Assembly (NCBI GenBank): GCA_945956935.1
Contig: CAMFJD010000005.1
Coordinates: 23,630 to 87,629 of the forward strand
DNA: 64,000 bases
Direction: 5' to 3'
DNA from: an uncultured Bacillota bacterium
Lineage (GTDB): Bacteria; Bacillota_I; Bacilli_A; Culicoidibacterales; ZOR0006
Position numbers and translations under genes: made by a program. Below, one piece after another: positions 18,183 through 40,078 of this stretch; the stretch's first letter is position 1; every line of letters starts with the position of its first letter. Under the pieces are notes generated by a model that searched no databases, had not been told where the DNA came from, and was given only the letters and a program-made list of their open reading frames with translations.

Positions 18183-20414
18183 ATGGGACAGATTTATTTT
18201 GAAGCGGGGAGTCAACAATTTCATATTCAAGGGGAAAATAGTAGCTATATTATGCATATATTGCCATCAGGTGAGTTAGGACACTTATATTATGGAAAAA
18301 GAATTGAGCATCAAGCAGATTTTAGTCAACAATTTGCACCATATAATTATGGAATGAGTCGAGATATTTTCCCACTAGATGACAGTGCGGCACTTGATTT
18401 TGTTGCATTAGAGTATCCAACATATGGTACATCTGATTTTCGTCAACCTGCGATAGAAGTGCGACAATGTAACGGAAGTCGCATTGTAAAATTTGTGTAT
18501 GAATCACATCAAATCGAAAAAAACAAGCAACCGATTGAGGCGATGCCAAGCGCATTTGGAACAGATGAGACAGTTATTACGCTAACGATTTATTTAACGG
18601 ATGCAGTCACGAAATTACGTTTAGCACTGAGTTACTCACTTTTTATGACGGGTGATGTCATAACACGCCATGCAAAAATTGAAAATAATGGTGTGGAATC
18701 AGTTCAGTTATTACGATTTTTAAGTATGAATATCGATTTTGATACAAAGGCATACGATATGATGACATTTACAGGAAGTTGGATTCGTGAACGTGAACTT
18801 GAAGTGGCACCATTACGTCGTGGTATTCAAAGTATTTCAAGTTCACGCGGTGCAAGCAGTGCAACAGCGAATCCGTTTTTTGTTTTAAAGGGGCATCATA
18901 CAACAGATTTTCACGGAGAGGCATATGGATTTAATTTGATGTATAGTGGGAATCATGTTGGTCAAGTTGAAGTGACTCCCTATGATCAAGCACGTGTTCA
19001 ACAAGGAGTAAATTACTTTGATTTTAATTGGGAGTTAGCACCAAATACCTCATTTCAATCACCAGAGGTAGCTATTGTATATACCGCAGATGGATTGAAT
19101 GATTTGACACAAACGTATCACGATTTTTATCGCGAACATATGATTAATCAATACTGGGTAAAAAAAGAACGACCAATTTTGATTAACAACTGGGAGGCGA
19201 CGTATTTTGATTTTGATGAAACAAAATTATTGGAATTAGCAAAAAAAGCAAAAGCAGTAGGAGTTGAATTGTTTGTTCTAGATGATGGTTGGTTTGGACA
19301 TCGAGATAGTGATAATAGTTCACTAGGTGATTGGTACTATGATCCAAAAAAATTACCATATGGTTTGAAGCATCTCGTTGATCAAATTACTGACCTAGGG
19401 CTACAGTTTGGTCTTTGGATTGAACCAGAGATGGTATCACCAGATAGTGATTTGTATCGCTCACATCCTGATTGGATTATTTGTGTAAGCGATCGAACGC
19501 CAACTCAAGGAAGAAATCAATATGTTCTCGATTTTACGAATAACGAAGTTGTCGATACAGTGTATGAAATGATTGCAAAAGTTATTCGGGAAAGTGGTGA
19601 TATTAGTTACATCAAATGGGATTGGAATCGTCCACTGACTGAAATTGGTTCATTACAGTTACCGCCACAAAAACAGCAAGAAGTCGCTCATCGCTATGTA
19701 CTTGGATTATATCGTTTTTATAACCATTTAATGAATGATTTTCCACATCTTTTAGTTGAAGGGTGTGCATCTGGTGGTTCACGCTTTGATGGTGGTATTT
19801 TAGCATATTCACCACAAATTTGGGCAAGTGATGATAGTGATGCAGTTGAACGTTTGAAAATTCAATATGGAACGTCATTTTGCTATCCTTTATCAACAAT
19901 TGGTGCTCATGTATCTGCGTCACCAAATCATCAAGTTCATCGAACAACAAGTTTAAAGATGCGAGGTGATGTTGCCTTTTTTGGAATTTTTGGTTATGAA
20001 CTAGATTTAACGATGTTAAGTGAAGGAGAGCTCACAGAAATTGCGGCACAAATTACTATGTATAAATCATATCGACAGCTAATCATCACTGGTGATTTTA
20101 GTCGCATTTTAAGTCCATACGATAGCAATGAGACAGCTTGGTCAGTTGTTGATAAATCAAAAACAAAAGCGATAGTTGGTTATTATCGAACACTCGCTCC
20201 TGCTTACAAATTACCAACACGAATCAAAATTCCACAACTTCAACCAGAGATGATTTATACGTTAAAGGGTACTAAACGAACATATCGTGGGGATGAACTC
20301 ATGAATTGGGGGATTGAGTTGAATTTGGTGCTGTTTGAAGAACTCGGCATATTAGGACAAATGTCAGGAGACCATGTATCACTTATTTTAGCATTTGATT
20401 GTATAACAAGATAA
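18183..20414 (+). CDS. Alpha-galactosidase, GH36
   Basis: NNWEATYFDF, LDDGWF, FGLWIEPEMVS, IKWDWNR (nucleophile), CASGGSRFD and WASDDSD (acid/base); no signal peptide. Confidence 0.95.
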   Translation: MGQIYFEAGSQQFHIQGENSSYIMHILPSGELGHLYYGKRIEHQADFSQQFAPYNYGMSRDIFPLDDSAALDFVALEYPTYGTSDFRQPAIEVRQCNGSRIVKFVYESHQIEKNKQPIEAMPSAFGTDETVITLTIYLTDAVTKLRLALSYSLFMTGDVITRHAKIENNGVESVQLLRFLSMNIDFDTKAYDMMTFTGSWIRERELEVAPLRRGIQSISSSRGASSATANPFFVLKGHHTTDFHGEAYGFNLMYSGNHVGQVEVTPYDQARVQQGVNYFDFNWELAPNTSFQSPEVAIVYTADGLNDLTQTYHDFYREHMINQYWVKKERPILINNWEATYFDFDETKLLELAKKAKAVGVELFVLDDGWFGHRDSDNSSLGDWYYDPKKLPYGLKHLVDQITDLGLQFGLWIEPEMVSPDSDLYRSHPDWIICVSDRTPTQGRNQYVLDFTNNEVVDTVYEMIAKVIRESGDISYIKWDWNRPLTEIGSLQLPPQKQQEVAHRYVLGLYRFYNHLMNDFPHLLVEGCASGGSRFDGGILAYSPQIWASDDSDAVERLKIQYGTSFCYPLSTIGAHVSASPNHQVHRTTSLKMRGDVAFFGIFGYELDLTMLSEGELTEIAAQITMYKSYRQLIITGDFSRILSPYDSNETAWSVVDKSKTKAIVGYYRTLAPAYKLPTRIKIPQLQPEMIYTLKGTKRTYRGDELMNWGIELNLVLFEELGILGQMSGDHVSLILAFDCITR

Positions 20415-20500
20415 ATAGAGAGCAACATGAAAGGAACATATAACCAAGCAAGGACAATGTTTCTACTCATGTTGTTTTTTAGATAAAAACATATTATAGT

Positions 20501-20529
20501 TTGAATGACTGATTACTTATTGGTATAAT
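20501..20529 (+). promoter_or_regulatory. Sigma-A promoter of the GntR gene
   Basis: TTGAAT, 17 nt, extended TG-n-TATAAT; imperfect palindrome AAACATATTATAGTTT at 20487-20502 abuts the -35. Confidence 0.6.
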
Positions 20530-20563
20530 GAAAGAATAGAGTTTTTGGAAAAGGATGATAAAT

Positions 20564-21268
20564 ATGGCATCAGCATATAAAAAAATTGCCGAAAGTATTA
20601 TTTGTGACTTGAAGGCTGGTAAATACCATGAAACAAAAAAATTACCGAAAGAAGAAGAATTGATTCAACAGTATGGTGTGAGTCGAACAACAATCCGTAA
20701 ATCAATTAATATTTTGGTCAATAAAGGATTCGTATATCAAGTACAAGGAAGTGGGATTTTCGTACGTGAAGCTGCACTACAAGATTATGTTAGCCTTGAA
20801 AATGTAAAAGGTTTAACACGTGATTTCCCAACAAAGCAAGTAGAAGCAAAGCTATTATCATTAGAAGTTATTGATGCTGATGAAGAGTTAGCAGAAGCAA
20901 TGCAGTGTGAAGTTGGGACAAAAATTTATTATTTGCAGCGACTACGTAGTGTAAGTGGGGACAAATTTGCACTAGAGTACTCATACTTTAACAAAAATAT
21001 TATTCCGTATTTAAGTGAGGAGATTATTAAGTCATCAATTTATAGTTATATTATCGACGATTTGAAATTAACGATTGGATTCGCTGATAAAATTATTACA
21101 GCAACAAAATTATCAGCAAATGAAGCACAATTACTTGAATTAGAATTAGGTGATCCAGCCCTCACTTTAAGTAGTACTGTTTTTTTAAGTAATGGAACAA
21201 TTTTTGAAGTTTCAAAATCTGTTCATCATTACAAGAATGCGAAATTGCTCAAATTAGCAACATTTTAG
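20564..21268 (+). CDS. GntR/HutC-subfamily (UTRA) transcriptional regulator, GmuR-like
   Basis: wHTH LPKEEEL..YGVSRTTIRKSI..QGSGIFV plus UTRA domain; start after SD AAGGA (alternative ATG at 20555). Confidence 0.9.
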   Translation: MASAYKKIAESIICDLKAGKYHETKKLPKEEELIQQYGVSRTTIRKSINILVNKGFVYQVQGSGIFVREAALQDYVSLENVKGLTRDFPTKQVEAKLLSLEVIDADEELAEAMQCEVGTKIYYLQRLRSVSGDKFALEYSYFNKNIIPYLSEEIIKSSIYSYIIDDLKLTIGFADKIITATKLSANEAQLLELELGDPALTLSSTVFLSNGTIFEVSKSVHHYKNAKLLKLATF

Positions 21269-21439
21269 GTATATCAAACTTTGATTGGCACATAACATTT
21301 TGTTATGATAAAAAAAATATAATGATTAGAAAGTCAAACTACTTATAGGTTTTTTGGCTTTTTTTTGGTTTATTTAACAAGAAGAGTGACTATTTATTAT
21401 AAAAAAAGAAAAAAACAGCAGTTTTCGAAAAAAACAAAA

Positions 21440-21477
21440 AGAAAACGCTTGCACATGAGAGGGCGCTTATGTATAAT
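21440..21477 (+). promoter_or_regulatory. Promoter of the ABC operon with cre-like site overlapping the -35
   Basis: AGAAAACGCTTGCA at 21440-21453; TTGCAC, 17 nt, TATAAT at 21472-21477. Confidence 0.65.
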
Positions 21478-21594
21478 CTAATTGTGGAGATTGGTATCCA
21501 TCAATTTATTAAATAAACATATATAGGATATGTCAAAATAAAATGAAGTGAGACCAACTTTATAAAATTACTTTTTGAAAAAGGGAGAATAACA

Positions 21595-22953
21595 ATGAAA
21601 AAAGTAGTATCAGTAGCAAGCGTTGCATTATTAGCAACAACATTAGTTGGATGTGGATCAAGCGCAGGAGCATCAGGGGACACTGATAAAATTACGGTTC
21701 ACACACATATGAGTCAATTAGTACTCGGTGAAGAAAAAAAAGATGATAACGGTAATACATATCGTGACGAGTCAACAGCATATCTCGCACAATTAGCAGA
21801 AAATTTCACTGCTGAAACAGGGATTGAAGTTGAGTTAGTTGTTTCACAGTCGGCAGATGATATCGAACCATTATTACGTGTCGAAGATCCAGAAGTAGAT
21901 GTGTTTACAGAACCAAACTTTTCAATTGAAAAATTTAAAGCATATGCTGAACCTTATTTTACATTAGCTGAGTGTGAAGAATGGTATGGAGATTATTGTG
22001 GAACAATGCAAAATGATGGCGAAAACGTATATTTACTTTCACCAGCAAAAGTATACGAAGCAGCTGTCGTATATAACGAAGAAGTTATTCAGGCTGCAGG
22101 ATATGATGAAATTCCAGCAACACTAGATGAATTTGAAGCAATGTTGACAAAAATTAAAGATATGGGTGTGACACCAATTTCACTCCATCGTATTGAAAAC
22201 TGGCCACTAGGAACAATTCGTGACTTCTCAGCGTATGTCGGTGGAGATGCTGAGACATTTACAAAAATGTTACAAAGTGATACGCCATTCTCTGAAACGG
22301 ATCCAGTTGGACAAACTGTAAAAATGTACACTGATTGGAAAGCAAATGGGTTCTTTGAGCAAGAAGTGTATACTGACTTTGGAGTGGCAATGGATTCAGT
22401 TGCATATGGAAAATCAGCAATGATGTTATTTGGAGCATGGGTAGTGCCACAAATTCAAGAACGTACACCAAATGGTATGGGTTCTGAAATTATTAAATTC
22501 GCACCTGCACCAGATTTTGGAGCAGGCCGTTATGTAATGACAAAAGCAGCAGATGGTTATGCAATTGGAAAAGGTTCTGATAATAAAGAGGGTGCACGTC
22601 AGTTTATTGAATATATTGCTGATAATGCTGATTATTTAGCAAAAAGTGGATTTATTGCCAATAAAAAAGGTGTTGAACCAATCGTACCAGAATTATATCA
22701 ATTAATTGATGAATCAGTTGAAGCTGGTGAAACAGAATTAATGTTTGGTGCGGCAACAACACAAAATTCGTTGAATAATGAGGCAGTTTTAAAAGAAGCG
22801 AACTTATTAGCAGATGATAAATGGGCTGGATTATTATTTGACTCATATGATATTACGAAACCAGGGAATTGGGATGCATATAATGCTCAAGTCAAAACAC
22901 AAAATGATGCATTTGTTAAATTTAGAGATCAACTTGGAATTACTTGGGAATAG
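21595..22953 (+). CDS. Sugar ABC transporter substrate-binding lipoprotein
   Basis: Lipobox LVG-C; family-1 SBP features (VVYNEEVIQAAG, YGKSAMMLFGAW). Confidence 0.9.
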   Translation: MKKVVSVASVALLATTLVGCGSSAGASGDTDKITVHTHMSQLVLGEEKKDDNGNTYRDESTAYLAQLAENFTAETGIEVELVVSQSADDIEPLLRVEDPEVDVFTEPNFSIEKFKAYAEPYFTLAECEEWYGDYCGTMQNDGENVYLLSPAKVYEAAVVYNEEVIQAAGYDEIPATLDEFEAMLTKIKDMGVTPISLHRIENWPLGTIRDFSAYVGGDAETFTKMLQSDTPFSETDPVGQTVKMYTDWKANGFFEQEVYTDFGVAMDSVAYGKSAMMLFGAWVVPQIQERTPNGMGSEIIKFAPAPDFGAGRYVMTKAADGYAIGKGSDNKEGARQFIEYIADNADYLAKSGFIANKKGVEPIVPELYQLIDESVEAGETELMFGAATTQNSLNNEAVLKEANLLADDKWAGLLFDSYDITKPGNWDAYNAQVKTQNDAFVKFRDQLGITWE

Positions 22954-22965
22954 TAAAAAGTATAC

Positions 22966-22994
22966 CAAGCGGTAGATGTTATATCTGCCGCTTG
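22966..22994 (+). other. Intercistronic stem-loop after the SBP gene
   Basis: CAAGCGGTAGAT-GTTAT-ATCTGCCGCTTG 12-bp stem with only a short T tract. Confidence 0.6.
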
Positions 22995-23018
22995 ATTTTC
23001 CAGAATGGGGGAGAACCA

Positions 23019-23936
23019 ATGTTAGGAGTAAAAGAGCAGACGCTCGCCTATCCAAAAACAAAAACAAGTCGAATGAGTGCAACAACGAAAAAAAGAATAC
23101 TTATTTTTAGTTTCTTAATTGTACCAATTATCCATTTATTAATTTTCTCGTATGTACCAATTATTACAAACTTTTTCTTAAGTTTTACAAATTATAATGG
23201 GGTATCAACACCAACGTTTATCGGATTCGATAACTATGTGCGATTATTTACCGATCCACAGTACATCCAAATGTTTAAAAATTGTTTATGGTATATGTTG
23301 ATGTCGATACCACAACTTGTTTTCTCATTTGCGTTAGCAATCTTTGTAAACGGAAAATTCCGCGGATTACAATTGTTTAAGGGGATTGCAATTATCCCAT
23401 ATTTATTAAATGGTGTTATTGTTTCAACAATTTTTATTATTTTCTTCAACAACACTGGAACATTAAATATGTTGTTGGGAGCATTAGGATTAGAAGGATT
23501 AACAACAAACTGGTTACAAAACTTAGATACAGTGAATCCGGCAATTGCATCAATTTCAATCTGGCGTTATTATGGAATGAACTTTATCATGTTTTTTGGA
23601 GCGTTACAGACAATTCCCAAAGATTTGTATGAAGCAGCAGCGATGGATGGTTGCAATAAATGGCAAGAAATCCGTTATATTGCTGTACCGGCAATAAAAA
23701 AAGTGCTGTATATCAATTTGATTTTAAGTATTTCTGGATCGATCCAAGTGTTCGAATTACCTTATATTATGATGAATGGTGCGAACGGAACGATGACACC
23801 GGTTATTCAAATCCAACAAAGTGCCTTCCAAGATGATCGCATTGGGTTTGCTGCAGCATTATCGATGCTTGTGTTTGTTATCGTCATTATCGCAATTGGT
23901 ATTCAAAAATTAGTAACAAAGGAGCGTTCAGCATGA
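23019..23936 (+). CDS. Carbohydrate ABC transporter permease (MalF/UgpA-like)
   Basis: FIGFDNY and EAA loop DLYEAAAMDG; start after SD GGGGGAG. Confidence 0.92.
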   Translation: MLGVKEQTLAYPKTKTSRMSATTKKRILIFSFLIVPIIHLLIFSYVPIITNFFLSFTNYNGVSTPTFIGFDNYVRLFTDPQYIQMFKNCLWYMLMSIPQLVFSFALAIFVNGKFRGLQLFKGIAIIPYLLNGVIVSTIFIIFFNNTGTLNMLLGALGLEGLTTNWLQNLDTVNPAIASISIWRYYGMNFIMFFGALQTIPKDLYEAAAMDGCNKWQEIRYIAVPAIKKVLYINLILSISGSIQVFELPYIMMNGANGTMTPVIQIQQSAFQDDRIGFAAALSMLVFVIVIIAIGIQKLVTKERSA

Positions 23937-24757
23937 TAAAAGAATCAAAAGGGTTTAAACTCATTCGGGCAATATTTTTGATTAGTGCAGCTCTCTTTGT
24001 TATTGTTCCACTAATTCCACTTGTATTTATGGCTTTTAAGACAGGGACTGAATATGCATCGACAGGTGTATTTACAGCACCACAATCATTTTTGAATTTT
24101 TATAACTTTATGTATGCAATTAATGTTGGAAAGCTTGGTGAGGCATTAATGAATACTGCGATTATTTTAGCTGTGTCACTGACAGTTCAAGTGTTATTTA
24201 CAACTATGGTATCGTATGTACTTCACCGGTTTGATTTTAAACTAAAAAAATTAGTAACATTTTTATTTACGATGACGATGTTTATTCCTGTTGTAACAAC
24301 ACAAGTTGTTGTTTTTGAAATCATTTATAGTATTGGACTTGTGAACACAATTTGGTCTGTAATTATTCTTTATTCAGGTGTAGGGATAGTCGGTATTTAT
24401 ATTATGTTAAATTTACTTGATTCAATTTCTAAAGATCTTGATGAGTCAGCCTTAATTGATGGAGCGAGTTATTTTACGATTTATCGTAAAATCATTTTTC
24501 CACTTCTAAAACCAGCAACAACAACTATGTTAATTTTAAATGGTATCGGTTTATATAACGATTTCTACATCCCAAATATTTATTTAAATAAATCAACACA
24601 GACATTTACAGTTGCTTTATATAAATTTTTTGGTTCAATGTCAACTCCGTTTGAAATTGTTGCTGCAGCAATTTTACTTGGGGTGATTCCGATTATGATT
24701 GTGTATCTATTCATGCAGAAATATATCTACTATGGTTTAGCAGGAGCAGTGAAGTAA
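23933..24757 (+). CDS. Carbohydrate ABC transporter permease (MalG/UgpE-like)
   Basis: EAA loop DLDESALIDGAS..IFPLLKP; ATGA overlap with the upstream permease. Confidence 0.92.
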   Translation: MIKESKGFKLIRAIFLISAALFVIVPLIPLVFMAFKTGTEYASTGVFTAPQSFLNFYNFMYAINVGKLGEALMNTAIILAVSLTVQVLFTTMVSYVLHRFDFKLKKLVTFLFTMTMFIPVVTTQVVVFEIIYSIGLVNTIWSVIILYSGVGIVGIYIMLNLLDSISKDLDESALIDGASYFTIYRKIIFPLLKPATTTMLILNGIGLYNDFYIPNIYLNKSTQTFTVALYKFFGSMSTPFEIVAAAILLGVIPIMIVYLFMQKYIYYGLAGAVK

Positions 24758-24758
24758 T

Positions 24759-25364
24759 ATGATTCATTCCAATTTCTACAAATTTCTAGGATGGATTCAT
24801 GTCACAGTCGTTTTTTCACTTCTTTTCTCAATTTTATCACTAGCTAGTGCAGGATTTTTATTCCTGCCTCTACTAGCGGTTGGCTTTGAGTTAAGCAAAG
24901 AAATCATTGAACGTGGATTTGATCCGCATGTATCGGTCGTAAAGTATGTGTATATGCGACTGAAACTGCATATTCGTTTGTTCCGTTTCAACGCTGTTTA
25001 CATTGTTTTACTACTAAATGGGATTGGAACATTACTCGGCATTTTTACACAACAATCGATGATTATGTATAGTTGTTCAGTTCTTGCTGTACTTGCATTT
25101 ATTTTCTTGATTTATATTGCATTTTATGCAACGTGGATTCAATCGAGTTTTCAACTTATCGATGTGTTCATCTTTATGTTTTATAAGTTACAGTATGTAC
25201 TTGTTCTCTTTGTTTTTTTTGTCAGTTGTGTTTATTTCAGTCAAAGTATAATTTTTCTAGCTTTTATTTTTTTAAATTTCTTAGCTATTTTATTCGTATC
25301 TGTACTGTTAAATAGTACGAGTGTACGATATTGTCACACAATTTTGCAAAAAGAGGAGATATAA
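24759..25364 (+). CDS. Membrane protein, YesL/DUF624-like accessory protein of sugar ABC operons
   Basis: 201 aa, about 5 TM, directly after the permeases; family call rests mostly on position and topology. Confidence 0.55.
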   Translation: MIHSNFYKFLGWIHVTVVFSLLFSILSLASAGFLFLPLLAVGFELSKEIIERGFDPHVSVVKYVYMRLKLHIRLFRFNAVYIVLLLNGIGTLLGIFTQQSMIMYSCSVLAVLAFIFLIYIAFYATWIQSSFQLIDVFIFMFYKLQYVLVLFVFFVSCVYFSQSIIFLAFIFLNFLAILFVSVLLNSTSVRYCHTILQKEEI

Positions 25365-26299
25365 TGAAATATATTAAAGGATTTACATGGGGTTGGAATT
25401 ATCAAACAGGTGACTGGTTGACACAAGCCGCACTAGATAGTATTGATGCGATGATTGAACGTACGAATTGTGATATAGTAATTGTACCGATACCAGCAAA
25501 GCAACAGACAGCACAAAGTACACAAGTCATGTACGAGTGTGATGATGTACCAACTCGAGCAGAAATAGTACGCATTTTGGAATATTTACAGTCCAAAAAT
25601 ATGCGTATTATATTAAAGGCAGTTGTTGATTGTTTAGATGGTACGTGGCGAGCATATATTAATTTTTTAACACCTGATGTTATTTGTGAACCGAAATGGT
25701 CAGAGTGGTTTGAAAGTTATACTAAATATGTGAGCTATGTGAGCGAATTTGCGACAAAATATGAAGCGGAGATGTTGATGATTGGTTGTGAAATGGTCTG
25801 TGCGGATAATCAAGCAGAGTATTGGCGCCAATTGATTAGGCATATACGAAAACAATACAATGGATTGTTGACATATAATTGCGATAAATACCAAGAAGAT
25901 CGTGTGACATGGTGGGATGCTCTTGATGTGATATCAAGTAGTGGATACTATCCAGTTGGTACGTGGGATGCGCAATTACAGCGGATACAAACAATTGTCG
26001 AACAGTATCAAAAACCATTTTTCTTTGCTGAAGCTGGTTGTCCTAGTAGAACTGGAAGTGAGCATTGTCCAAATGATTGGCAGTGGTTGAGTGAAGTGAA
26101 TGAAAAAGCACAAGATTGTTATTATACCGAATTATTTGAAACAACCAAAAACTATCCATTTGTGAAAGGATTTGCATTTTGGGATTGGCCCATCCGTCTT
26201 TACTCATTAGAACAAGTAACACAAAATGATGATTATAGTGTCTATGGAAAACAAGCCGAAAAGCGAATTGCGATTGCTTACAGTAGTAAAGGAGAATAG
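25364..26299 (+). CDS. Intracellular GH113 beta-mannanase/mannosidase
   Basis: IKGFTWGW, DGTWRA, IGCEM (acid/base Glu), TYNCDKYQED, SSSGYYP and FFAEAG (nucleophile Glu); no signal peptide; TAATG overlap. Confidence 0.88.
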   Translation: MKYIKGFTWGWNYQTGDWLTQAALDSIDAMIERTNCDIVIVPIPAKQQTAQSTQVMYECDDVPTRAEIVRILEYLQSKNMRIILKAVVDCLDGTWRAYINFLTPDVICEPKWSEWFESYTKYVSYVSEFATKYEAEMLMIGCEMVCADNQAEYWRQLIRHIRKQYNGLLTYNCDKYQEDRVTWWDALDVISSSGYYPVGTWDAQLQRIQTIVEQYQKPFFFAEAGCPSRTGSEHCPNDWQWLSEVNEKAQDCYYTELFETTKNYPFVKGFAFWDWPIRLYSLEQVTQNDDYSVYGKQAEKRIAIAYSSKGE

Positions 26300-26300
26300 A

Positions 26301-28357: not shown

Positions 28358-28359
28358 TT

Positions 28360-29241: not shown

Positions 29242-29254
29242 TTGCTAGTACATG

Positions 29255-29287: not shown

Positions 29288-29422
29288 ATATAACAGCGTA
29301 GGTGACTGTGTCTGTTTTGGATGCTAGTGTAGCAGTTAACATAAAATATGAAATGTAGTTGCTATTTATTAATATATTCAGATATACTAATGAGTATCAG
29401 ATAAATGTGAGGAGTTCTTCAA

Positions 29423-30136: not shown

Positions 30137-30155
30137 CTTGATGTGTAATTCAGTG

Positions 30156-30177
30156 AAAGGGTGAGAATCCCTTTTTT
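30156..30177 (+). terminator. Weak intrinsic terminator between the regulator and kinase genes
   Basis: AAAGGG-TGAGAAT-CCCTTT followed by a T run. Confidence 0.5.
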
Positions 30178-30317
30178 ATTTGCATTATTGATGATAAAAC
30201 ATAGGAAATAGTCAGTTTCTTATTATTTTAAAATGTATATCATCTATACTCGTAAAGATAGTTTATATTATAATAGGTAAACTAAAACTTTAGTTGTGAA
30301 GGAATGAGTGAGTAAAG

Positions 30318-32234: not shown

Positions 32235-32239
32235 AAAGA

Positions 32240-32306
32240 CAATAAATGACAAAAAATAAACCGTTGGTGACATATATCTAAAGAAAATAGCGGAATATGC
32301 TATACT
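32240..32306 (+). promoter_or_regulatory. Promoter with 21-bp-spaced direct repeats (candidate LytTR site)
   Basis: TGACA at 32247 and 32268; extended TG-n-TATACT at 32301-32306; no consensus -35. Confidence 0.4.
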
Positions 32307-32377
32307 ATGTCTCTCAAAATGATACGCGATACTCTCGAGGAACGAATACTTTATGTACTAAGAAAGGTGATAAAAAA

Positions 32378-33562
32378 ATGGAACATACATTATTTAGCCA
32401 AATATTGGATCATCAAGATAATGGAATTATTATTATGACAACGGAACGTGAAATTGTCTATGTGAATCACCGAGTACAGAAAGTATTGGGAGATGGTGTG
32501 CATCAGGTGTTTGGTAAATATTTGAATTGTCAATGGGTTCATGTGGAATCTAGTTGCTGCGCGTCACTGTATCAGTGTCAAAAATGCGTCATTAACAAAG
32601 GAATACATTATGTACTAGAAACAAAAGGCTCTAAAAAATTGCATAATGTTCAGATTGATAAGAATAATTTGGAATTAGCTGTAACAATGAAAATTTCTTT
32701 ACTGAATGAATACATTCTTATAGAATTATCTGAATTTCAAGTTATCAATTTTAAAACAGAATTTTTGATTCGTTTAGCAGATAAATCTAACGATATTATG
32801 TTCTTTAAAGATGAAGAGTTGAAATATGTTTATGTTAACCAAACATATGCAAATTTTTATAATAAAGACAAAGAGTATCTTATTGGTAAAACGGATGAAG
32901 AGTTGATAAATGCTGGTTTGCTAAGTCGAGAACTATATGAACAATGTCGAATAGGTGATATCGAAGCATTAAAGTCTGGACATTATCATGATATTGAGGT
33001 GATGGGAGATCAATATTTTCGTGTGTCTAAAGAGAATATTGAGAATGGTGTACTTGGAATAGCTAGAAATATTACTGAGGAGATGAGTGCAATTCACCAA
33101 TCAGAAATCGATCAGCTGACTGGGGTATATAATCGCCACAAATTTGAACAGTCTATACGTACAATTTATGATGAACAGAACAGAAAATATGCTATTGCTG
33201 TAATAGATGTAGATGATTTAAGAGGATTAAACAATGAATATGGTCATTTAAAAGGTGATACCTATTTGAAAGCACTTGGGAAAATTTTCCAAGAGCAAAG
33301 ACATACAACGTTTTTTCGAATTGGTGGCGATGAGTTTGTTGGTCTTATTAATACAGACTGTATCGAACCTGATAAGGTGTTTAATTCAATAGTTAGTTCT
33401 TCATTATTATTAGGTTTTCAACCACAGTTAAGTGTTAGCGTAGGTGTGTCTCAATTTGATACAAATCTTTCATATGAGCAAAATTATGAATTAGCTGATC
33501 GGTTATTATATCAAGCTAAGTCTCAAGGAAAAAATGGTGTAATTATAGATATTAGTGACTAA
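32378..33562 (+). CDS. PAS-PAS-GGDEF diguanylate cyclase
   Basis: DQLTGVYNR, DVDDLRGLNNEYGHLKGD, RIGGDEF, SVGVS and ADRLLYQAKSQGKN; N-terminal PAS-like repeats; start after SD AAAGGTG. Confidence 0.9.
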   Translation: MEHTLFSQILDHQDNGIIIMTTEREIVYVNHRVQKVLGDGVHQVFGKYLNCQWVHVESSCCASLYQCQKCVINKGIHYVLETKGSKKLHNVQIDKNNLELAVTMKISLLNEYILIELSEFQVINFKTEFLIRLADKSNDIMFFKDEELKYVYVNQTYANFYNKDKEYLIGKTDEELINAGLLSRELYEQCRIGDIEALKSGHYHDIEVMGDQYFRVSKENIENGVLGIARNITEEMSAIHQSEIDQLTGVYNRHKFEQSIRTIYDEQNRKYAIAVIDVDDLRGLNNEYGHLKGDTYLKALGKIFQEQRHTTFFRIGGDEFVGLINTDCIEPDKVFNSIVSSSLLLGFQPQLSVSVGVSQFDTNLSYEQNYELADRLLYQAKSQGKNGVIIDISD

Positions 33563-33608
33563 AGTGACAATGCTATGCAACGAATGAGTGAATGAAGGAG
33601 AGAGATGT

Positions 33609-34832
33609 GTGAATAACTTATATCAAAATAGCAATAGGTATAAATTTATTGAAAAATTAAAAGAACGTACAGGTTATTATTTAGCGTGTATTGATATTGT
33701 AAATTTTAAAAATATAAATGAAAAACACTGTTTTTATAATGGAGATGTTATTCTATCACAGCTTATTAGTCGCATCGAATCATTGTCAAGTTTGAATTGT
33801 CCAGTTAGTGTGTGCCGTTATGAGAATGATATTATGATGATTATGATTGATACAACTTGTGAGCATACTGTATTTTCACTTCTTGATAAAATTGTGGAAC
33901 ATTCTTATAAATATGATGTTTCCTTTCGATGTGGATACAAGAAAATTGATACTTTCCAGAAAATTGAACATTTTTTAGAAAGTATTATCTATGTTATTAA
34001 ATACAAACGGTATATAGTCGAAAAAACGATTGATGAAACACATAAGTTAAATGAAGATATTGAAAAATATTTTGCAATTAAGCAAGATGTTATTATTAAT
34101 AATAAGGAAAATTTCCAATTGGTGTACCAACCAAAAATTGCTAATAAAGATAAATCAATTCATTCATGTGAAGTATTGAGTCGCTGGTGTCACCCAGAGA
34201 TAGGTCAAAGTATGCCGGATGAATTTTTGCCGATTATTAAACATGTTGATAAAGAGATTGAATTTGATCTAATTATTTTTGAAAAAGCGTGTCAAGAATT
34301 AAGTAATGAAGCGGCATTGACAGAAATATTTTCAATTAACATTTGTATTAAATCAATGTTATACGAGCAATTCGCAGCAAAAATTATTAAATATGTTGAA
34401 AAATATAATATGAATGCTGAAAATATAACTATCGAAATTTTAGAAGATATTTGTGAATATGATCAGGTAGAGTTGAGTAGAAATATTGAAATATTAAGTG
34501 AATACGGTTTTCGAATTTCAATTGATGATTTTGGAACGGGATATTCATCGTATTGTCGATTAGCTGCACTTGATTTTACCGAAGTGAAAATTCCACGAGA
34601 GTTTCTTTTATTAGACAATTATTTCTCAATAAAGAAAAATCGTCAGATATTATCGGGAATTGTAAGTATGTGTAAGGCACTCAATTGTAAAATTGTCATT
34701 GAGGGTGTTGAAACTCAAGAAAATGTACGACTGGCAGAAGACTTGGGAATTGATTATATTCAAGGGTATTACTATTCAAAACCATTGCCGAAAGAAGCGT
34801 ATATTCACTTTATTCAGAATTATACTGCATAA
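33609..34832 (+). CDS. EAL c-di-GMP phosphodiesterase with degenerate N-terminal GGDEF domain
   Basis: YQPKI, EVL, SINI, IEILE, DDFGTGYSS, EGVET and QGYYYSKP; GGDEF site reads YENDI; GTG start after AGGAG (alternative 33588). Confidence 0.88.
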   Translation: MNNLYQNSNRYKFIEKLKERTGYYLACIDIVNFKNINEKHCFYNGDVILSQLISRIESLSSLNCPVSVCRYENDIMMIMIDTTCEHTVFSLLDKIVEHSYKYDVSFRCGYKKIDTFQKIEHFLESIIYVIKYKRYIVEKTIDETHKLNEDIEKYFAIKQDVIINNKENFQLVYQPKIANKDKSIHSCEVLSRWCHPEIGQSMPDEFLPIIKHVDKEIEFDLIIFEKACQELSNEAALTEIFSINICIKSMLYEQFAAKIIKYVEKYNMNAENITIEILEDICEYDQVELSRNIEILSEYGFRISIDDFGTGYSSYCRLAALDFTEVKIPREFLLLDNYFSIKKNRQILSGIVSMCKALNCKIVIEGVETQENVRLAEDLGIDYIQGYYYSKPLPKEAYIHFIQNYTA

Positions 34833-34843
34833 TTAGTCCTATC

Positions 34844-34875
34844 AACCAATCATTAAAACGAATGATTGGTTTTTT
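34844..34875 (+). terminator. Intrinsic terminator
   Basis: AACCAATCATT-AAAACG-AATGATTGGTT followed by T's. Confidence 0.8.
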
Positions 34876-34901
34876 ATTATTTTGAAAAAATAAATATTTT
34901 A

Positions 34902-34962
34902 TTGCAAAAACGCTTTCTTAGTAATATAATGAAAGTGTAGATTATTTGTGTACACAAATAAT
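34902..34962 (+). promoter_or_regulatory. GH1 promoter with cre-like site and a perfect 22-bp palindrome
   Basis: TTGCAA, 17 nt, TATAAT (34925-34930); cre-like CAAAAACGCTTTCT in the spacer; ATTATTTGTGTACACAAATAAT at 34941-34962. Confidence 0.7.
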
Positions 34963-35008
34963 AATAAAGTACATAAATATAAAATAGTAACATAAAAGGA
35001 GAAAAAAG

Positions 35009-36406
35009 ATGAAAGTAACTTTTCCAGAAGGTTTTTTATGGGGAGCAGCAACAAGCGGTATTCAATCAGAAGGTGGATTTGAAAAGAGTAATCCGTCAAT
35101 TTGGGAATTATGGTATGACAAAGAACCAGAACGTTTTTATCAACAAATTCCATGTGATGTTGTGTGTGATACATACCATCGTTATGAAGAAGATGCACGT
35201 TTAATGGCTGAAATTGGAATGAATAGTTTCCGCACATCAATTCAATGGGGGCGTCTTATTAAAAATTTAGAGACAAATGAAGTCGATGAAAAAGCGGTAG
35301 AATTCTACAATAATTATATTGATGCTTTACTTGACCAAGGGGTTGAACCAATTTTAGGATTGTACCATTTTGATATGCCAGCAGTGCTGCAAGAAACATA
35401 TGGTGGATTTGAAAGTAAGGAAGTTGTAGAAAAATTTGCTCAATATGCGAAGATTTGTTTTGAGCTATTTGGCGATCGTGTGAAAAAATGGTCAACTTTT
35501 AATGAACCAATTGTACCAGTTGAAGGTGGTTACTTATATGATTTCCATTATCCAAATAAAAAGGATGCACGTTTAGCAGTACTCGTGTCATATAATACTA
35601 TTTTAGCACATGCTAAAGCAGTCCATGCATACCGTGAAGTTGGTTGTAGTGGTGAAATTGGTGTGGTATTAAATTTAACACCATCATATACGTGCGATGA
35701 TCAACCACAAAATAAATTAGCAGCGTATTATGCTGATTTATTTTTTAATCGTTCGTTCCTAGATCCAATGGTGAAAGGTGAATTCCCACAAGACTTAGTA
35801 GACATTTTAAAAGCAGCAAATGTTTTACCAACAACTACAGCAGAAGAAATGACAACAATTAAGACTGCAACAATTGACTTTATGGGTGTGAATTATTATG
35901 TACCACGTCGTGTTCGTGCACGGACAACAGTCTATGATTTAGATTATTTTACTCCTGAAATGTTTTTTGAGTATTATATTGAAGAGAATGCACGTTTCAA
36001 TCCATTCCGTGATAATAATGAAATTAAGCCAGTTGCAATTTATGATATTGCTCAGAATATTAAAGAAAATTATGGAAATATTAAATGGTATTTATCAGAA
36101 ATCGGTATCGCTATGGATGTTGTGAGTGAAGGAGCAGTTCAAGCAGATGGACTTATCGATGATTCATTCCGTATTGCATTGCTAGAAGAGCATTTAGTGG
36201 AGTTATCAAAAGCAATTAGTGAAGGTGCAAATTGCTTTGGCGTACACAACTGGACATTTATCGATTGTTGGTCGTGGATTAATTCATTTAAACGTCGGTA
36301 TGGGTTTTATCGCCTTGATTTAGAAACACAGGAACGTCAAATGAAAAAATCAGGTGTATGGCACCGCGAATTAGCGAAGAATAACGGATTTATCTACGAA
36401 GGATAA
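35009..36406 (+). CDS. gmuD: GH1 6-phospho-beta-glycosidase, GmuD-like
   Basis: TFNEP (acid/base), LSEIG (nucleophile), phosphate-site WSWINSFKRRY; NEPIVPVEGGYLYDFHYPN and FFNRSFLDP.VKGEFP recalled as B. subtilis GmuD-like. Confidence 0.85.
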   Translation: MKVTFPEGFLWGAATSGIQSEGGFEKSNPSIWELWYDKEPERFYQQIPCDVVCDTYHRYEEDARLMAEIGMNSFRTSIQWGRLIKNLETNEVDEKAVEFYNNYIDALLDQGVEPILGLYHFDMPAVLQETYGGFESKEVVEKFAQYAKICFELFGDRVKKWSTFNEPIVPVEGGYLYDFHYPNKKDARLAVLVSYNTILAHAKAVHAYREVGCSGEIGVVLNLTPSYTCDDQPQNKLAAYYADLFFNRSFLDPMVKGEFPQDLVDILKAANVLPTTTAEEMTTIKTATIDFMGVNYYVPRRVRARTTVYDLDYFTPEMFFEYYIEENARFNPFRDNNEIKPVAIYDIAQNIKENYGNIKWYLSEIGIAMDVVSEGAVQADGLIDDSFRIALLEEHLVELSKAISEGANCFGVHNWTFIDCWSWINSFKRRYGFYRLDLETQERQMKKSGVWHRELAKNNGFIYEG

Positions 36407-36480
36407 TGTTTTTAGCCACCACGCAGCTAGTCTATTAGAGTACGTGGTGGTTTTTATGTGATAAAAAGGAGTGAGAGCGA

Positions 36481-37392
36481 ATGGATTTTTATGTAGGAAT
36501 TGATATTGGTGGTACACAAACACGAATTGCGCTTGTTGATGGAAGTGGCAATATTCAAAAAGAAATGCGATTTGCAACAATAGCTAACGATGTGGAACAA
36601 CATGTAGAAATTATGGCAGTAAATTTGCAAACATTAACAAAAGGATATAATTATGCCAGTGTTGGTATTGCGAGTCCTGGTCCATTAAATGCGAAAACAG
36701 GTATTATTGGGACACCACCGAATTTACCAGGATGGCATGGATTCCCGTTAGTTGATGTTTTTTCAGCAATGATTCAAAAACCGGTAGTACTTGAAAATGA
36801 TGCGAACTTGGCAGCATTTGCTGAAGCGAGTGTTGGTGCTGGTGCTGGGGAAGCAATTGTTCAATTTTTTACTATTTCAACAGGTATTGGTGGTGGACTT
36901 GTCATAAACGGTAATCTATATACAGGTGCAAACGGTATGGGACTTGAGGTTGCAAATTGCATGTGTGATGAACAAAATACGATTGGTGGTAATACAAAAC
37001 ATGGAAGTGTAGAACGTATTTGTTCAGGGACAGGTATTTTGGCACAGGCACAAGAGTTAGGTTTAGCAGTGGCATCGACAAAAGATGTGTTTGAGCTTGC
37101 GTATAGTGAAGTGAAGGATATTGAGCAGCAAAAAGCTACACAATTAATTACATATGTAGGTGAGCAGTTTGGAAATTTTTTGGCATCAATTCAAGGAATT
37201 ATTGATCCAAGTGTGATTGTTCTAGGTGGTAGTGTTGCTTTATATAATCCAATGTTTGTAGAATTAGTATACACGCAAATGAAAGAACGTGTGTATGAAA
37301 GTGTCCAAGAGAGTTGTCATATACGTATTGCCAAATTGGGTGATGCTGCAGGTGTTATTGGTGCAGCTCTGTGGTCAAAAGCAAAATTATAG
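36481..37392 (+). CDS. ROK-family sugar kinase
   Basis: GIDIGGT, SPGP, ENDANLAAFAE and STGIGGG. Confidence 0.88.
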   Translation: MDFYVGIDIGGTQTRIALVDGSGNIQKEMRFATIANDVEQHVEIMAVNLQTLTKGYNYASVGIASPGPLNAKTGIIGTPPNLPGWHGFPLVDVFSAMIQKPVVLENDANLAAFAEASVGAGAGEAIVQFFTISTGIGGGLVINGNLYTGANGMGLEVANCMCDEQNTIGGNTKHGSVERICSGTGILAQAQELGLAVASTKDVFELAYSEVKDIEQQKATQLITYVGEQFGNFLASIQGIIDPSVIVLGGSVALYNPMFVELVYTQMKERVYESVQESCHIRIAKLGDAAGVIGAALWSKAKL

Positions 37393-37397
37393 CATTT

Positions 37398-37432
37398 AAA
37401 ATAGCGTTTTCACAAGAAAACGCTATTTTTTT
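37398..37432. terminator. Intrinsic terminator
   Basis: AAAATAGCGTTTTC-ACAA-GAAAACGCTATTTT perfect 14-bp stem plus T run. Confidence 0.8.
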
Positions 37433-37443
37433 GATTTTTTTAT

Positions 37444-37481
37444 AGAAAACGCTTGCTAAACACTTTGAAAAGGCATATACT
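37444..37481 (+). promoter_or_regulatory. EIIC-manA promoter with cre-like site over the -35
   Basis: AGAAAACGCTTGCT at 37444-37457; TTGCTA, 17 nt, TATACT at 37476-37481. Confidence 0.65.
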
Positions 37482-37562
37482 TTAAAAGTAATCTAATTGA
37501 GGTCTACAAATTAAGTAAAGATATATCAATTAGATAGATAGCACTATTTGGAGGGGGAGAAG

Positions 37563-38855
37563 ATGAGCTTCTATCAAAAACTTGATTCAACAATTTTAAA
37601 ACTGGGAGAAAAACTAAGTAACAACACAATTTTAATGATTTTAAGGGATGCATTCATGTTGGCGTTTCCGCTAACAATATTCGGATCAATTATGCTTGTA
37701 ATTGCCAATTTTCCTTTTTTAGACAAACTTATTAGCCCTGAGGCATTAACGATGTTGAAGGACACATTAAATCCAGCAGCAACTGCAACCATGTCAATTG
37801 CAACTGTATTTGTTTGTTTAGGGATTGGATACTATACGAGTAAAAAGAAAAATGTCGAACCACTATTTGGTGCAGCGATTGCATTTGTTGCATTCTTATT
37901 ATTAACACCATTTACGGCAGCGAATGCGGATGGACAAATGATTGAAAATGTTCTAAGTATTGAACGATTAGGTGCAAAGGGAATGTTTGTTGGAATGATT
38001 GCTTCATTTATAGCAGCATTTATGTATGCCGGTATTGTGAATCGTAATTGGACAATTAAAATGCCACCATCAGTACCACCAGCAGTGTCAAAATCATTCA
38101 CTGCATTAATACCAGCGGTATTAACATTGTCATTATTCTTAGTATTACGCCTTATATTCACATTTACACCATGGGGAAATGCACATGATTTCATTTTTGA
38201 AATGATTCAGACACCATTGATGATTCTTGGAAAAGGGTTGCCAGCAACGTTATTAGCAATTTTGGCAATTCAAATTCTTTGGTTCTTCGGTTTACATGGT
38301 CAAATTATTGTTAACTCAGTGTTAGATCCAATTTGGAATACATTATCATTGGAGAATTTAAATGCATTTCAAGCAGGAGAAATGTTGCCGAACATTGTCA
38401 ATAAACAGTTTATTGAAACGTTTACAGTTGGGCTTGGTGGGACAGGGATGACTTTAATTGTTGTCATTGCAATTCTTTGGTTTATGCGCAGCCGACAATT
38501 GAAAGAAGTTGCGAAATTATCAGCACCAGCAGCAGTATTTAATGTCAATGAACCGGTAATCTTTGGTTTACCTATCGTCTTAAATCCTGTCATTGCAATT
38601 CCTTGGATTTTAGCTCCTGTTGTTGCGACATTAGTTGCTTATTTAGCGATGTCAAGTGGAATTGTCCCACTTACAACTGGAGTAGCAGTTCCTTGGACAA
38701 CACCAGTATTTATAAGTGGTATTTTAGCAACAAACTCATTAATGGGTGGAGTACTTCAATTGGTACAGATGGCAATTGTCTTTATTATTTGGTTCCCATT
38801 CTTAAAGGCACTAGATAAAAAAGCAGTGACACTTGAGTCGGAAAATGAACAATAA
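37563..38855 (+). CDS. celB: PTS lactose/cellobiose-family EIIC component (CelB/GmuC-like)
   Basis: LRDAFML.FPL, LGAKGMF, MPPSVPPAVSKSF, WFFGLHG and FNVNEPVIFGLPIVLNP. Confidence 0.9.
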   Translation: MSFYQKLDSTILKLGEKLSNNTILMILRDAFMLAFPLTIFGSIMLVIANFPFLDKLISPEALTMLKDTLNPAATATMSIATVFVCLGIGYYTSKKKNVEPLFGAAIAFVAFLLLTPFTAANADGQMIENVLSIERLGAKGMFVGMIASFIAAFMYAGIVNRNWTIKMPPSVPPAVSKSFTALIPAVLTLSLFLVLRLIFTFTPWGNAHDFIFEMIQTPLMILGKGLPATLLAILAIQILWFFGLHGQIIVNSVLDPIWNTLSLENLNAFQAGEMLPNIVNKQFIETFTVGLGGTGMTLIVVIAILWFMRSRQLKEVAKLSAPAAVFNVNEPVIFGLPIVLNPVIAIPWILAPVVATLVAYLAMSSGIVPLTTGVAVPWTTPVFISGILATNSLMGGVLQLVQMAIVFIIWFPFLKALDKKAVTLESENEQ

Positions 38856-38888
38856 AATTTAGTGATGATGCGAAAGGGTTGAATACAG

Positions 38889-39830
38889 ATGGAACCAATA
38901 CAGTTTAAACCATTGTATTTTGAAAAAGTATGGGGAGGTCAAGGATTACAAGCTTTCCGAAATGATGTTCCTCAAGGAGCGATTGGTGAGAGTTGGGATG
39001 TTACATGTCATCCTAATGGTATGAGCGTAGTCGCAGCAGGAGAATTTGCAGGACAGACCTTTGCTGAATTAATCGAGCAATTTGGTAGTCAGCTTGTTGG
39101 TACAAAAGTTTCTACGGCTGATTTCCCATTATTATTAAAAGTGATAACAGCTGAAGAAAATTTATCAATTCAAGTACACCCTGGTGATGAATATGCGAAA
39201 GAACATGAAGGACAGCTTGGAAAAACAGAGGCGTGGTATGTATTAAATGCAACACCAGAAGCAACATTAACAATAGGTGTTGATTCTGAAAGTGGAGCAG
39301 AATTTCGACAAGCACTAAAAGATGGTGGTGACTTAACACCATACTTACAAACAGTTTCAGTTACAAAGGGTGATTGCTTCTTAATCCCAAGTGGATGTGT
39401 TCATGCGATTGGTGCAGGTGTAACGATTATCGAAATTCAACAAAGTAGTGATGTTACATATCGACTTTATGACTATGGGCGTCCACGTGAAATTCATGTT
39501 GAACAAGGGTTGTCAGTTACTGATGTTTCAATTCAAGTGCCAAACTTACGACATAAATCAGTTGTTACACATGATGGATATACAACGCAGTTATTTTGTG
39601 AAAATGACTATTTTGGCTTAGAGCGGATTGTAGTCCATAATGTCTGTGCACAGAAGACGGATTTCACTCGTTTTGAAATCTTGACATGTGTTTCTGGAGA
39701 AATCACGTTAGCGAATGATACATTCAAAGCAACACTTGTTACAGGAGATAGCTACTTATTACCAGCATCTCTTGGTGAATATCAATTACAAGGAAATGGA
39801 GAAGTATTACGTAGTTACCCAGTTGTTTAA
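38889..39830 (+). CDS. manA: Mannose-6-phosphate isomerase class I
   Basis: EKVWGG, IGESW, FPLLLK, LSIQVHP, KTEAWY, VHAIG and EIQQSSDVTYRLYDY. Confidence 0.95.
   Translation: MEPIQFKPLYFEKVWGGQGLQAFRNDVPQGAIGESWDVTCHPNGMSVVAAGEFAGQTFAELIEQFGSQLVGTKVSTADFPLLLKVITAEENLSIQVHPGDEYAKEHEGQLGKTEAWYVLNATPEATLTIGVDSESGAEFRQALKDGGDLTPYLQTVSVTKGDCFLIPSGCVHAIGAGVTIIEIQQSSDVTYRLYDYGRPREIHVEQGLSVTDVSIQVPNLRHKSVVTHDGYTTQLFCENDYFGLERIVVHNVCAQKTDFTRFEILTCVSGEITLANDTFKATLVTGDSYLLPASLGEYQLQGNGEVLRSYPVV

Positions 39831-40001: not shown

Positions 40002-40078
<77 letters not shown>

Follow-up and report, generated by a model that had tools for sequence, protein, structure and literature searches.

A mosaic beta-mannan island in an uncultured Culicoidibacterales bacterium, with a candidate kinase and phospho-glycosidase route in place of GH130

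The window analyzed here, a stretch of 64,000 nt from contig CAMFJD010000005.1 of an uncultured Bacillota bacterium (Culicoidibacterales) found in fish-gut metagenomes, carries a beta-mannan utilization locus at 18183-39830; coordinates throughout are those of the whole window, and genes in the locus were called with Pfam and NCBIfam. We lean toward reading the locus, from sequence comparisons, as a mosaic island in which an ATP-binding cassette (ABC) importer, a GH113 glycoside hydrolase and esterases were placed into a gmu-like phosphotransferase system (PTS) operon, and in which a kinase and a phospho-GH1 would replace the GH130 route to mannobiose breakdown. Every gene lies on the + strand, in the order GH36, GntR/UTRA regulator, substrate-binding protein (SBP), two permeases, a 201-aa membrane protein, GH113, two SGNH esterases (CEa and CEb), a first ROK protein (ROK1), LytTR regulator, GHKL kinase, PAS-GGDEF protein, EAL protein, GH1, a second ROK protein (ROK2), PTS EIIC and mannose-6-phosphate isomerase (ManA). 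A first-pass annotation made from the sequence alone had listed its genes in this same order, and all were recovered. It had also described two adjoining halves; both gene sets are present, but a 5.4-kb signaling cassette that it had omitted stands between them.

Assembly of the island

The union first proposed, of an ABC/GH113/GH36/CE17-like/CE2-like set with an EIIC/GH1/ROK/ManA/GntR set, is borne out by two relatives, which however move the seam. At a different site, the congener G001 has a compact PTS-only operon, GntR | GH1-ROK1-ROK2 | EIIB-EIIC-ManA, whose leading GntR is 74% identical to that of the window and whose other products are 74% (GH1), 64% (ROK1), 53% (ROK2), 79% (EIIC) and 58% (ManA) identical to their counterparts. 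In L118, the closest metagenome relative (71% identity in GH113 and 94.5% in one permease), the genes run GntR, SBP, two permeases, membrane protein, GH113, CEa and CEb, followed by a near-identical GH1 promoter and the start of GH1, with neither ROK1 nor the signaling cassette between. A PTS-only operon in the one, and the block between GntR and GH1 in the other, thus show that the hybrid is real and that its seam lies elsewhere: the PTS-type operon contributed GntR, GH1 and both ROKs, GntR and ROK1 among them having been assigned to a gut-Clostridia-type module, and only the genes from SBP through the esterases were grafted in. Read most simply, a gmu-like PTS operon took up the ABC/GH113/esterase block between its regulator and GH1; later, in the lineage of the window, ROK1 would have come to stand last in the ABC operon, EIIB would have disappeared, and the cassette and GH36 would have been added. 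So read, the island is a clean case of a catabolic island made by placing a transport and trimming module into another operon.

In three congeners a ferritin gene and tRNA-Arg(TCT) lie 170-260 bp apart, and the genes that come next are in each case the same hypothetical gene, tig and clpX. The window instead has a species-specific insert of ~22 kb (~17970-39940) between the ferritin gene (17453..17965, - strand, NCBIfam non-heme ferritin) and tRNA-Arg(TCT) (40002..40078, + strand), and homology with the congeners resumes at ~39943. None of the 40 relatives searched, among them three species of the host's genus, has GH113; within-family synteny was not usable for the GH113 locus, and comparisons were drawn instead from metagenome contigs and a GTDB-wide scan. 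The island edges (17966-18182 and 39831-40001) showed no integrase, transposase or flanking repeat. Colinearity over 20400-40025 with a 22-kb contig of another fish-gut metagenome indicates that the arrangement is stable within the species. Beyond the island, the open reading frame (ORF) at 40068-41015 has a listed start that overlaps tRNA-Arg by 11 nt, its true start probably being downstream; its protein matches no family, and the congeners have counterparts (32-35% identity) in the corresponding place.

A candidate kinase and phospho-GH1 branch

The host genome (1.84 Mb, 99.77% complete) was searched for the enzymes that would be expected of established mannan pathways. Nothing in it matched GH130 (PF04041) or cellobiose/mannobiose 2-epimerase (PF07221); it has no GH26, so no GmuG-type secreted mannanase, and no true GH5, the sole PF00150 matches being cross-hits to GH1 genes. 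The first-pass annotation had noted these absences for the window, and had named GH130 enzymes elsewhere as a possible carrier of the flux; the absences extend to the whole genome, and the search for GH130 there found none. Given this genome-wide lack of GH130, epimerase and secreted mannanase, its inference of a cross-feeding scavenger is a reasonable one. A survey of GH113 found that most species of clade 1 encode no other known mannanase (PMC9032380), which also fits scavenging.

GH1 (35009..36406, + strand) has as its nearest solved relative SPy1599 of Streptococcus pyogenes (4B3K/5FOO, E 4e-129), which has been characterized as a 6-phospho-beta-glucosidase (PMC9075583, PMC10360150). It bears the C-terminal motif WSW..SFKRRYG, with the phosphate-site Ser and Tyr in WSWINSFKRRYG, and all the locus GH1s retain the S...Y phosphate-site motif; on solved-structure match, motif and tree we assign it to the SPy1599 type, and it is a probable 6-phospho-beta-glycosidase (mannosidase or glucosidase). 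ROK1 (28360..29241, + strand), the last gene of the ABC operon, is a BglK-like ROK kinase: its best NCBIfam model is BglK (146 bits against a cut-off of 550), glucokinase models match too, and its solved matches are a pneumococcal ROK protein (2GUP, E 1e-44) and, second-best, the Listeria beta-glucoside kinase (4HTL, E 4e-37). ROK2 (36481..37392, + strand, Pfam ROK) is a probable hexose (mannose) kinase by homology. The gap between GH1 and ROK2 (36407-36480) contains a GC-rich hairpin, CCACCACG...CGTGGTGG, followed by a run of T, which could act as a partial terminator setting the GH1:ROK2 ratio. On contig C21 (~27508-29130) a ROK2-like gene (50% identity) is paired with a second ManA-like gene (36%), probably a housekeeping mannose kinase and isomerase.

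The PTS side of the locus ends in EIIC and ManA. EIIC (37560..38855, + strand) is of the lactose/cellobiose family (TIGR00359, 455 bits, above the 434-bit cut-off); its nearest named relatives are from metagenome-assembled genomes of Culicoidibacterales (79-80% identity), and named homologs are labeled only with the generic 'cellobiose IIC'. ManA (38889..39830, + strand) is a class I mannose-6-phosphate isomerase (TIGR00218, 148.5 bits, above cut-off). Neither EIIA nor EIIB is encoded within the locus or island. In G001 EIIB sits between ROK2 and EIIC (L116 8497-8935), where the window has a 155-bp spacer; the gene has been cleanly lost at 37393-37559, with promoter, cre box and operator-like site kept. 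Elsewhere the genome encodes HPr and enzyme I (ptsH/ptsI), a single lactose-type EIIA on contig C1 and, on the same contig, two free-standing EIIBs. Contig C1 also holds a beta-glucoside region (~159-170 kb) with four GH1 genes, EIIB and an EIIC of 33% identity, directly after which comes another ROK1-like kinase (43%).

The pairing of this GH1 with ROK1 is not peculiar to the window. Three metagenome contigs (L014, L011 and L013) carry GH1 orthologs (67-78% identity) and a ROK1-like gene inside ABC/GH113 operons, with no PTS genes within 10 kb; orthologs in such ABC-only operons of relatives do not sustain the view that GH1 and ROK are a Bacillus-specific graft. Among 80 GH113 loci in named genomes, 11 carry a GH1 at 45-50% identity, their sources being Fundicoccus, Jeotgalibaca, Enterococcus casseliflavus, E. 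camelliae, Lapidilactobacillus, Clostridium manihotivorum, C. folliculivorans, Bacillus sp. B1-b2 and Lysinibacillus piscis. A ROK1-like gene lies near GH1 in nine of these 11 and in all the metagenome loci, and GntR is present in most of the named loci. In a maximum-likelihood tree the locus GH1s form one clade (100/100) apart from the genome's four classical GH1s, and within it PTS-linked members (G001, Bacillus changyiensis) are interleaved with ABC-linked ones (L014, L011, L013, Clostridium, Enterococcus). The architecture had been called distinct; it is not unique, since loci with GH113, ABC, GH1, ROK and GntR occur in Enterococcus, Fundicoccus, Jeotgalibaca, Lapidilactobacillus, Clostridium and Bacillus, and the window is one example of an uncharacterized variant that is widespread in sequenced genomes, not a one-off.

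This variant and GH130 tend to exclude each other. In a sample drawn from ~570 GH113 genomes, and without phylogenetic correction, GH130 was absent in nine of 11 genomes with both GH113 and the SPy1599-type GH1, and present in 11 of 11 GH113 genomes lacking that GH1, usually next to GH113 (Fisher p = 2.2e-4). As a side observation, six loci with the GH1/ROK pair (L027, L080, L076, L046, L011 and L013) have mannobiose 2-epimerase-like genes beside GH113; the first four, from named genomes, are entirely without GH130, leaving the epimerase without its usual phosphorylase partner.

These parts suggest the following route. Acetylated or galactosylated manno-oligosaccharides freed by other organisms or by the diet would be bound by the lipoprotein SBP and imported through the two permeases, powered by a shared MsmX-like ATPase. 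In the cytoplasm the esterases would deacetylate them, GH36 would take off galactose, and GH113 would trim the chains to mannose and a disaccharide; mannose and mannobiose build up under exo-acting enzymes of GH113 (PMC9032380). The disaccharide (mannobiose or a mixed Glc/Man species) would then receive a phosphate on the 6-position of the non-reducing sugar, from BglK-like ROK1 or, in direct uptake, from EIIC working with the EIIA and EIIB encoded elsewhere. GH1 would split the phospho-disaccharide into hexose-6-phosphate and free hexose, ROK2 would phosphorylate the free hexose, and ManA would convert mannose-6-phosphate to fructose-6-phosphate, such that ATP- or phosphoenolpyruvate-driven phosphorylation and hydrolysis stand in for the epimerase/GH130 phosphorolysis of Roseburia and Faecalibacterium. 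Since a phospho-glycosidase is required in a PTS-only operon, where GH1 is the sole glycosidase, the ABC-only loci would need a cytoplasmic kinase to supply it; ROK1 is the obvious candidate for making the GH1 substrate in those loci.

Import, trimming and control

The lipoprotein SBP (21595..22953, + strand, Pfam SBP_bac_1, lipobox LVGC) is the only locus protein with a signal sequence, which places all the enzymes of the locus in the cytoplasm. Its best solved relatives are the complexes of Bifidobacterium BlMnBP1 with mannotriose and mannopentaose (E 7e-18, the next family reaching 1e-9), and by this likeness its ligands are probably manno-oligosaccharides. The two ABC permeases (22944..24757, + strand, Pfam) have no ATPase gene beside them in the locus; an MsmX-like ATPase is on contig C12. 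Next comes the polytopic 201-aa membrane protein (24759..25364, + strand), kept at the same position in relatives (72% identity in L118, 47% in L014) and family-less: no Pfam family matched it even at E<=10, nor its counterparts in three related loci, and the YesL-like (DUF624) identity once given to it was therefore rejected.

GH113 (25364..26299, + strand, PF22612, E 3e-111) matches AxMan113A (5YLH, E 2e-101) and BaMan113A (7DV7, E 9e-89) and has no signal peptide. It falls with the cytoplasmic clade-1 GH113 enzymes of Roseburia/Faecalibacterium-type loci, as a beta-1,4-mannanase or an exo-oligomannosidase. CEa (26301..27374, + strand), a CE17-like SGNH acetyl esterase with its SGNH domain first, has a sole solved relative, 6HFZ/6HH9 (E 1.7e-12), an entry labeled 'GDSL-like protein' that we take to be RiCE17. 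CEb (27371..28357, + strand), a beta-sandwich followed by an SGNH domain, has no clear sequence match to solved structures; in its AlphaFold model (pLDDT 84.7) both domains align with CE2 esterases, the best folds being 2WAA, 2WAO, 4XVH and Est2A (E 1e-15 to 4e-14), so that it is predicted to be CE2-like. Together with GH36, this putative esterase pair corresponds to the CE17, CE2 and GH36 set of Roseburia/Faecalibacterium-type loci. GH36 itself (18183..20414, + strand, Pfam Melibiase, E 4e-160) is a cytoplasmic alpha-galactosidase with its own promoter, 65% identical to the GH36 of congener G003, where the gene lies beside LacI and GH2. Starts were corrected for GH113 (25364), the esterases (26301 and 27371) and EIIC (37560).

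The GntR/HutC-type regulator with a UTRA domain (20555..21268, + strand, Pfam), preceded by a promoter-like site (20501-20529), is the probable repressor of the three operons that begin with SBP, GH1 and EIIC. Their promoters share one layout, in which a cre-like box (AGAAAACGCTTGC or a variant) overlies the -35 element and is followed by the -10 element and an 18-bp palindrome near AATTKGTGTACACMAATT. The SBP-operon promoter (21439..21506, + strand) has its box at 21439-21453 with one mismatch, -35/-10 at 21450-21477 and a degenerate palindrome at 21489-21506; the GH1 promoter (TTGCAA-17-TATAAT, 34902..34960, + strand) has a weaker cre-like box, AAAAACGCTTTC, and the palindrome TATTTGTGTACACAAATA at 34943-34960, the only strong one in the window; and the EIIC promoter (TTGCTA-17-TATACT, 37443..37512, + strand) has its box at 37443-37457, again with one mismatch, and a degenerate palindrome at 37495-37512. 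The layout is common to seven orthologous promoters from the window, L118 and G001: the GH1 promoter is conserved in both relatives, and the palindrome is strong at the SBP promoter of L118 and at the EIIC-homologous promoter of G001. As a marker of a genome-wide regulon the palindrome was rejected, the SBP and EIIC sites being drowned among 90 equal matches.

The claim of cre-like sites at four promoters stands in part. The site at the GH36 promoter (18136..18150, + strand) is exact, the only one both exact and intergenic, and the SBP and EIIC boxes have a single mismatch, but the GH1 box is weaker and a scan with the strict consensus WTGNAANCGNWNNCW gave three matches in the window against 1.55 expected, with no enrichment over chance. 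Despite these weak statistics the boxes are probably real, since they overlap the -35 element and recur in orthologous promoters of the congener and the metagenome relative. From the shared promoter design, it is plausible that CcpA and the locus GntR jointly control the three operons. Terminators after ROK1 (29254-29281), LytTR (30155), EAL (34844), ROK2 (37398-37429) and ManA (39907-39922) point to at least six transcription units.

The signaling cassette (29423..34832, + strand, Pfam) encodes the LytTR response regulator, a 638-aa GHKL kinase, and the PAS-GGDEF and EAL proteins, and is lower in G+C (~0.30). It is lacking between CEb and GH1 in L118, and G003 has a homologous four-gene cassette (L117 266-5563, 42-53% identity) after LacI | GH36-GH2. 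The cassette was rejected as a pathway part, being absent at the same junction of L118 and accompanying GH36-GH2 in G003; it probably lies outside the mannan pathway and seems to travel with GH36.

Competing explanations and known systems

GH1 might instead be an ordinary beta-mannosidase or beta-glucosidase acting by plain hydrolysis, with ROK1 and ROK2 as hexokinases (e.g., for glucose and mannose) and EIIC as a separate entry or a relic; we consider this unlikely, though it deserves real weight. Counting for it, and against a kinase and phospho-GH1 route, GH1's top NCBIfam match is the non-phospho BGL model (351 bits, under cut-off), and the close solved relatives 5NAQ/5NAV carry a beta-galactosidase label; a further point against that route is that the SPy1599-type clade has the lysine of the classical S/K/Y phosphate triad in a displaced position. 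ROK1 likewise scores so far under the BglK cut-off, with glucokinase models also matching, that it could be an ordinary hexokinase, and G001 retains it in a PTS-only operon where a disaccharide kinase seems unnecessary, whereas two hexokinases for two possible aglycones would make sense. Yet GH1 is the sole glycosidase beside the PTS in G001 and in a gmuBACDR-ordered Bacillus operon, and since PTS-delivered substrates are phosphorylated, the GH1 of both must accept phospho-substrates; the nearest characterized enzyme, moreover, is a 6-phospho-beta-glucosidase, and the phosphate-site Ser and Tyr are conserved.

We hold it improbable that the island consists of independent neighbors sharing neither flux nor regulation, with ABC/GH113/esterases serving mannan while GH1-ROK2 and EIIC-ManA serve cellobiose or other beta-glucosides and mannose. 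The units do have separate promoters and terminators and an unrelated 5.4-kb cassette between them, and further points that count against our preferred reading would sit well with such a division: EIIC passes the cutoff of the cellobiose-IIC equivalog, so that its substrate could simply be cellobiose, and operator likeness has little statistical backing at the promoters of SBP and EIIC (four mismatches, with 90 such sites genome-wide, individually not significant). Expression evidence is weak: in the only candidate RNA run, a small one whose RNA status is guessed, contigs touch the ABC operon, ROK2, EIIC and the cassette and not GH1 or ManA. Against such a division, GH1 orthologs are embedded in the ABC/GH113 operons of L014, L011 and L013 and in L118 come immediately behind CEb, ROK1, a PTS-operon gene in G001, now ends the ABC operon, and, compared with the congeners, the block is present or missing as one unit; without GH1, moreover, no evident mannobiose enzyme is left (no GH130 and no epimerase; GH2 was not searched). 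That the PTS is decaying, the loss of EIIB having left EIIC non-functional and the locus ABC-only like L014, seems to us very improbable. The 155-bp spacer where G001 has EIIB, and the presence of just one lactose-type EIIA in the genome, are what one would then expect, and a locus without EIIB, in which EIIC may work poorly or not at all, is a difficulty for direct uptake in our own scheme; however, EIIC has an intact reading frame with an ATG start behind a strong GGAGGGGGAG ribosome-binding site, its own promoter and ~99% conservation in other metagenome strains, and the two free-standing EIIB genes on contig C1 could be drawn upon. On balance we retain the mosaic island with a kinase and phospho-GH1 route.

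The best-studied counterparts of the ABC side are the epimerase/GH130-type mannan loci of Roseburia intestinalis (MULL) and Faecalibacterium prausnitzii (FpMULL) (PMC6385246, PMC8262883). Like the window, these have an ABC importer, whose SBP binds manno-oligosaccharides as that of the window probably does, cytoplasmic GH113, GH36, CE17 and CE2, a small hypothetical gene and a mannose-6-phosphate isomerase step, and F. prausnitzii resembles the host organism in having no secreted mannanase and in cross-feeding. They differ in mannobiose 2-epimerase, two GH130s, phosphomannomutase and LacI, all absent genome-wide in the host, in place of which the window has a full-length SPy1599-type GH1, two ROKs, a PTS EIIC and GntR; the 'GH1' of Roseburia, unlike that of the window, is truncated and inactive and forms a fusion with the isomerase.

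The Gmu proteins of Bacillus subtilis comprise a lactose/cellobiose EIIC, a GH1 phospho-beta-glycosidase, a GntR repressor, a ROK protein, mannose-6-phosphate isomerase and the secreted GH26 GmuG. Their genes form the PTS-type glucomannan operon gmuBACDREFG (Sadaie et al. 2008, as summarized in PMC10766802), with which the window shares EIIC, probable cre-mediated catabolite control and, by homology and motifs, GH1, GntR, ROK and mannose-6-phosphate isomerase. The window differs in having no EIIA or EIIB and no secreted GH26, in its second, BglK-like ROK and its gene order, and in the ABC/GH113/esterase block after the regulator. The comparison with B. subtilis was made by proxy, through a Bacillus changyiensis operon of EIIB-EIIA-EIIC-GH1-GntR (gmuBACDR order), whose EIIC is 56-58%, GH1 48% and GntR 29% identical to those of the window and whose GH1 shares the SPy1599-type motif; this supports a gmu-like PTS side, with orthology left without proof.

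A fuller ABC and PTS hybrid is an uncharacterized locus of Lysinibacillus piscis KH24 (L065), which has on one stretch ABC genes, GH36, GH113, esterases, GntR, EIIC (55%), GH1 (49%), a ROK1-like gene, a second ROK and ManA, in a genome without GH130. It differs from the window in its EIIA, EIIB, GH5 mannanase with a mannan-binding domain, LacI and chemoreceptor gene, and other esterase types (small GDSL, AXE1/CE7) take the place of CEa and CEb; EIIA, EIIB and the mannanase suggest that it is probably a primary degrader. Its methyl-accepting chemotaxis protein gene (L065 4626-6407) lies between the ABC genes and GH36. The mannan cluster of Bacillus sp. N16-5 shares the ABC importer, GH113, alpha-galactosidase and an esterase with the window but is of the epimerase and 'glycosidase' (GH130) type, with LacI and a secreted mannanase and without GH1, ROK or PTS (PMC4792470).

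The SPy1599 locus of streptococci targets host N-glycans, not plant mannan, and SPy1599 has been assayed on phospho-glucosides only. Contig C13 of the host genome (L119, 94-14586) has two permeases, GH38, an SBP and a ROK1-like gene (37%), with an SPy1599-type GH1 (45%) and GH85 nearby, the same set as surrounds SPy1599 in streptococci. In the published model of that N-glycan pathway, no beta-mannosidase is known for the Man-beta-1,4-GlcNAc core in streptococci (PMC6160142). We put forward tentatively, and with less than even confidence, that the SPy1599-type GH1 and a BglK-like ROK form a general Bacillota module of beta-mannoside kinase and 6-phospho-beta-mannosidase, an ATP-dependent counterpart of GH130 that finishes mannobiose and Man-Glc as well as the Man-beta-1,4-GlcNAc of N-glycans. 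In a literature search of incomplete coverage we found neither a mannobiose or beta-mannoside kinase, nor a phospho-beta-mannosidase beyond the annotation of GmuD, nor any description of a kinase and phospho-GH1 route for manno-oligosaccharides. If the kinase and phospho-GH1 route is confirmed, it would give a role to a widespread, poorly understood GH1 clade and its ROK partner and offer a candidate for the missing beta-mannosidase step in Gram-positive N-glycan catabolism. Predictions of manno-oligosaccharide feeders from carbohydrate-active enzymes would also change, a missing GH130 no longer meaning inability. The island has a bearing on mannan-rich plant ingredients of fish feed.

The BglK and 6-phospho-beta-glucosidase systems of Klebsiella and Listeria are the precedent for such a scheme, with unphosphorylated import, a ROK kinase and cleavage by a phospho-GH1, although ROK1 is distant from BglK and its proposed substrate is a beta-mannoside. 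Current accounts of how Bacillota use beta-mannan are of the ABC and epimerase/GH130 kind (Roseburia, Faecalibacterium, Bacillus N16-5) or of the PTS and phospho-glycosidase kind (gmu); the island and its relatives suggest a third wiring, almost mutually exclusive with GH130 in the sampled genomes, in which ABC import and GH113 would feed a kinase and a phospho-GH1.

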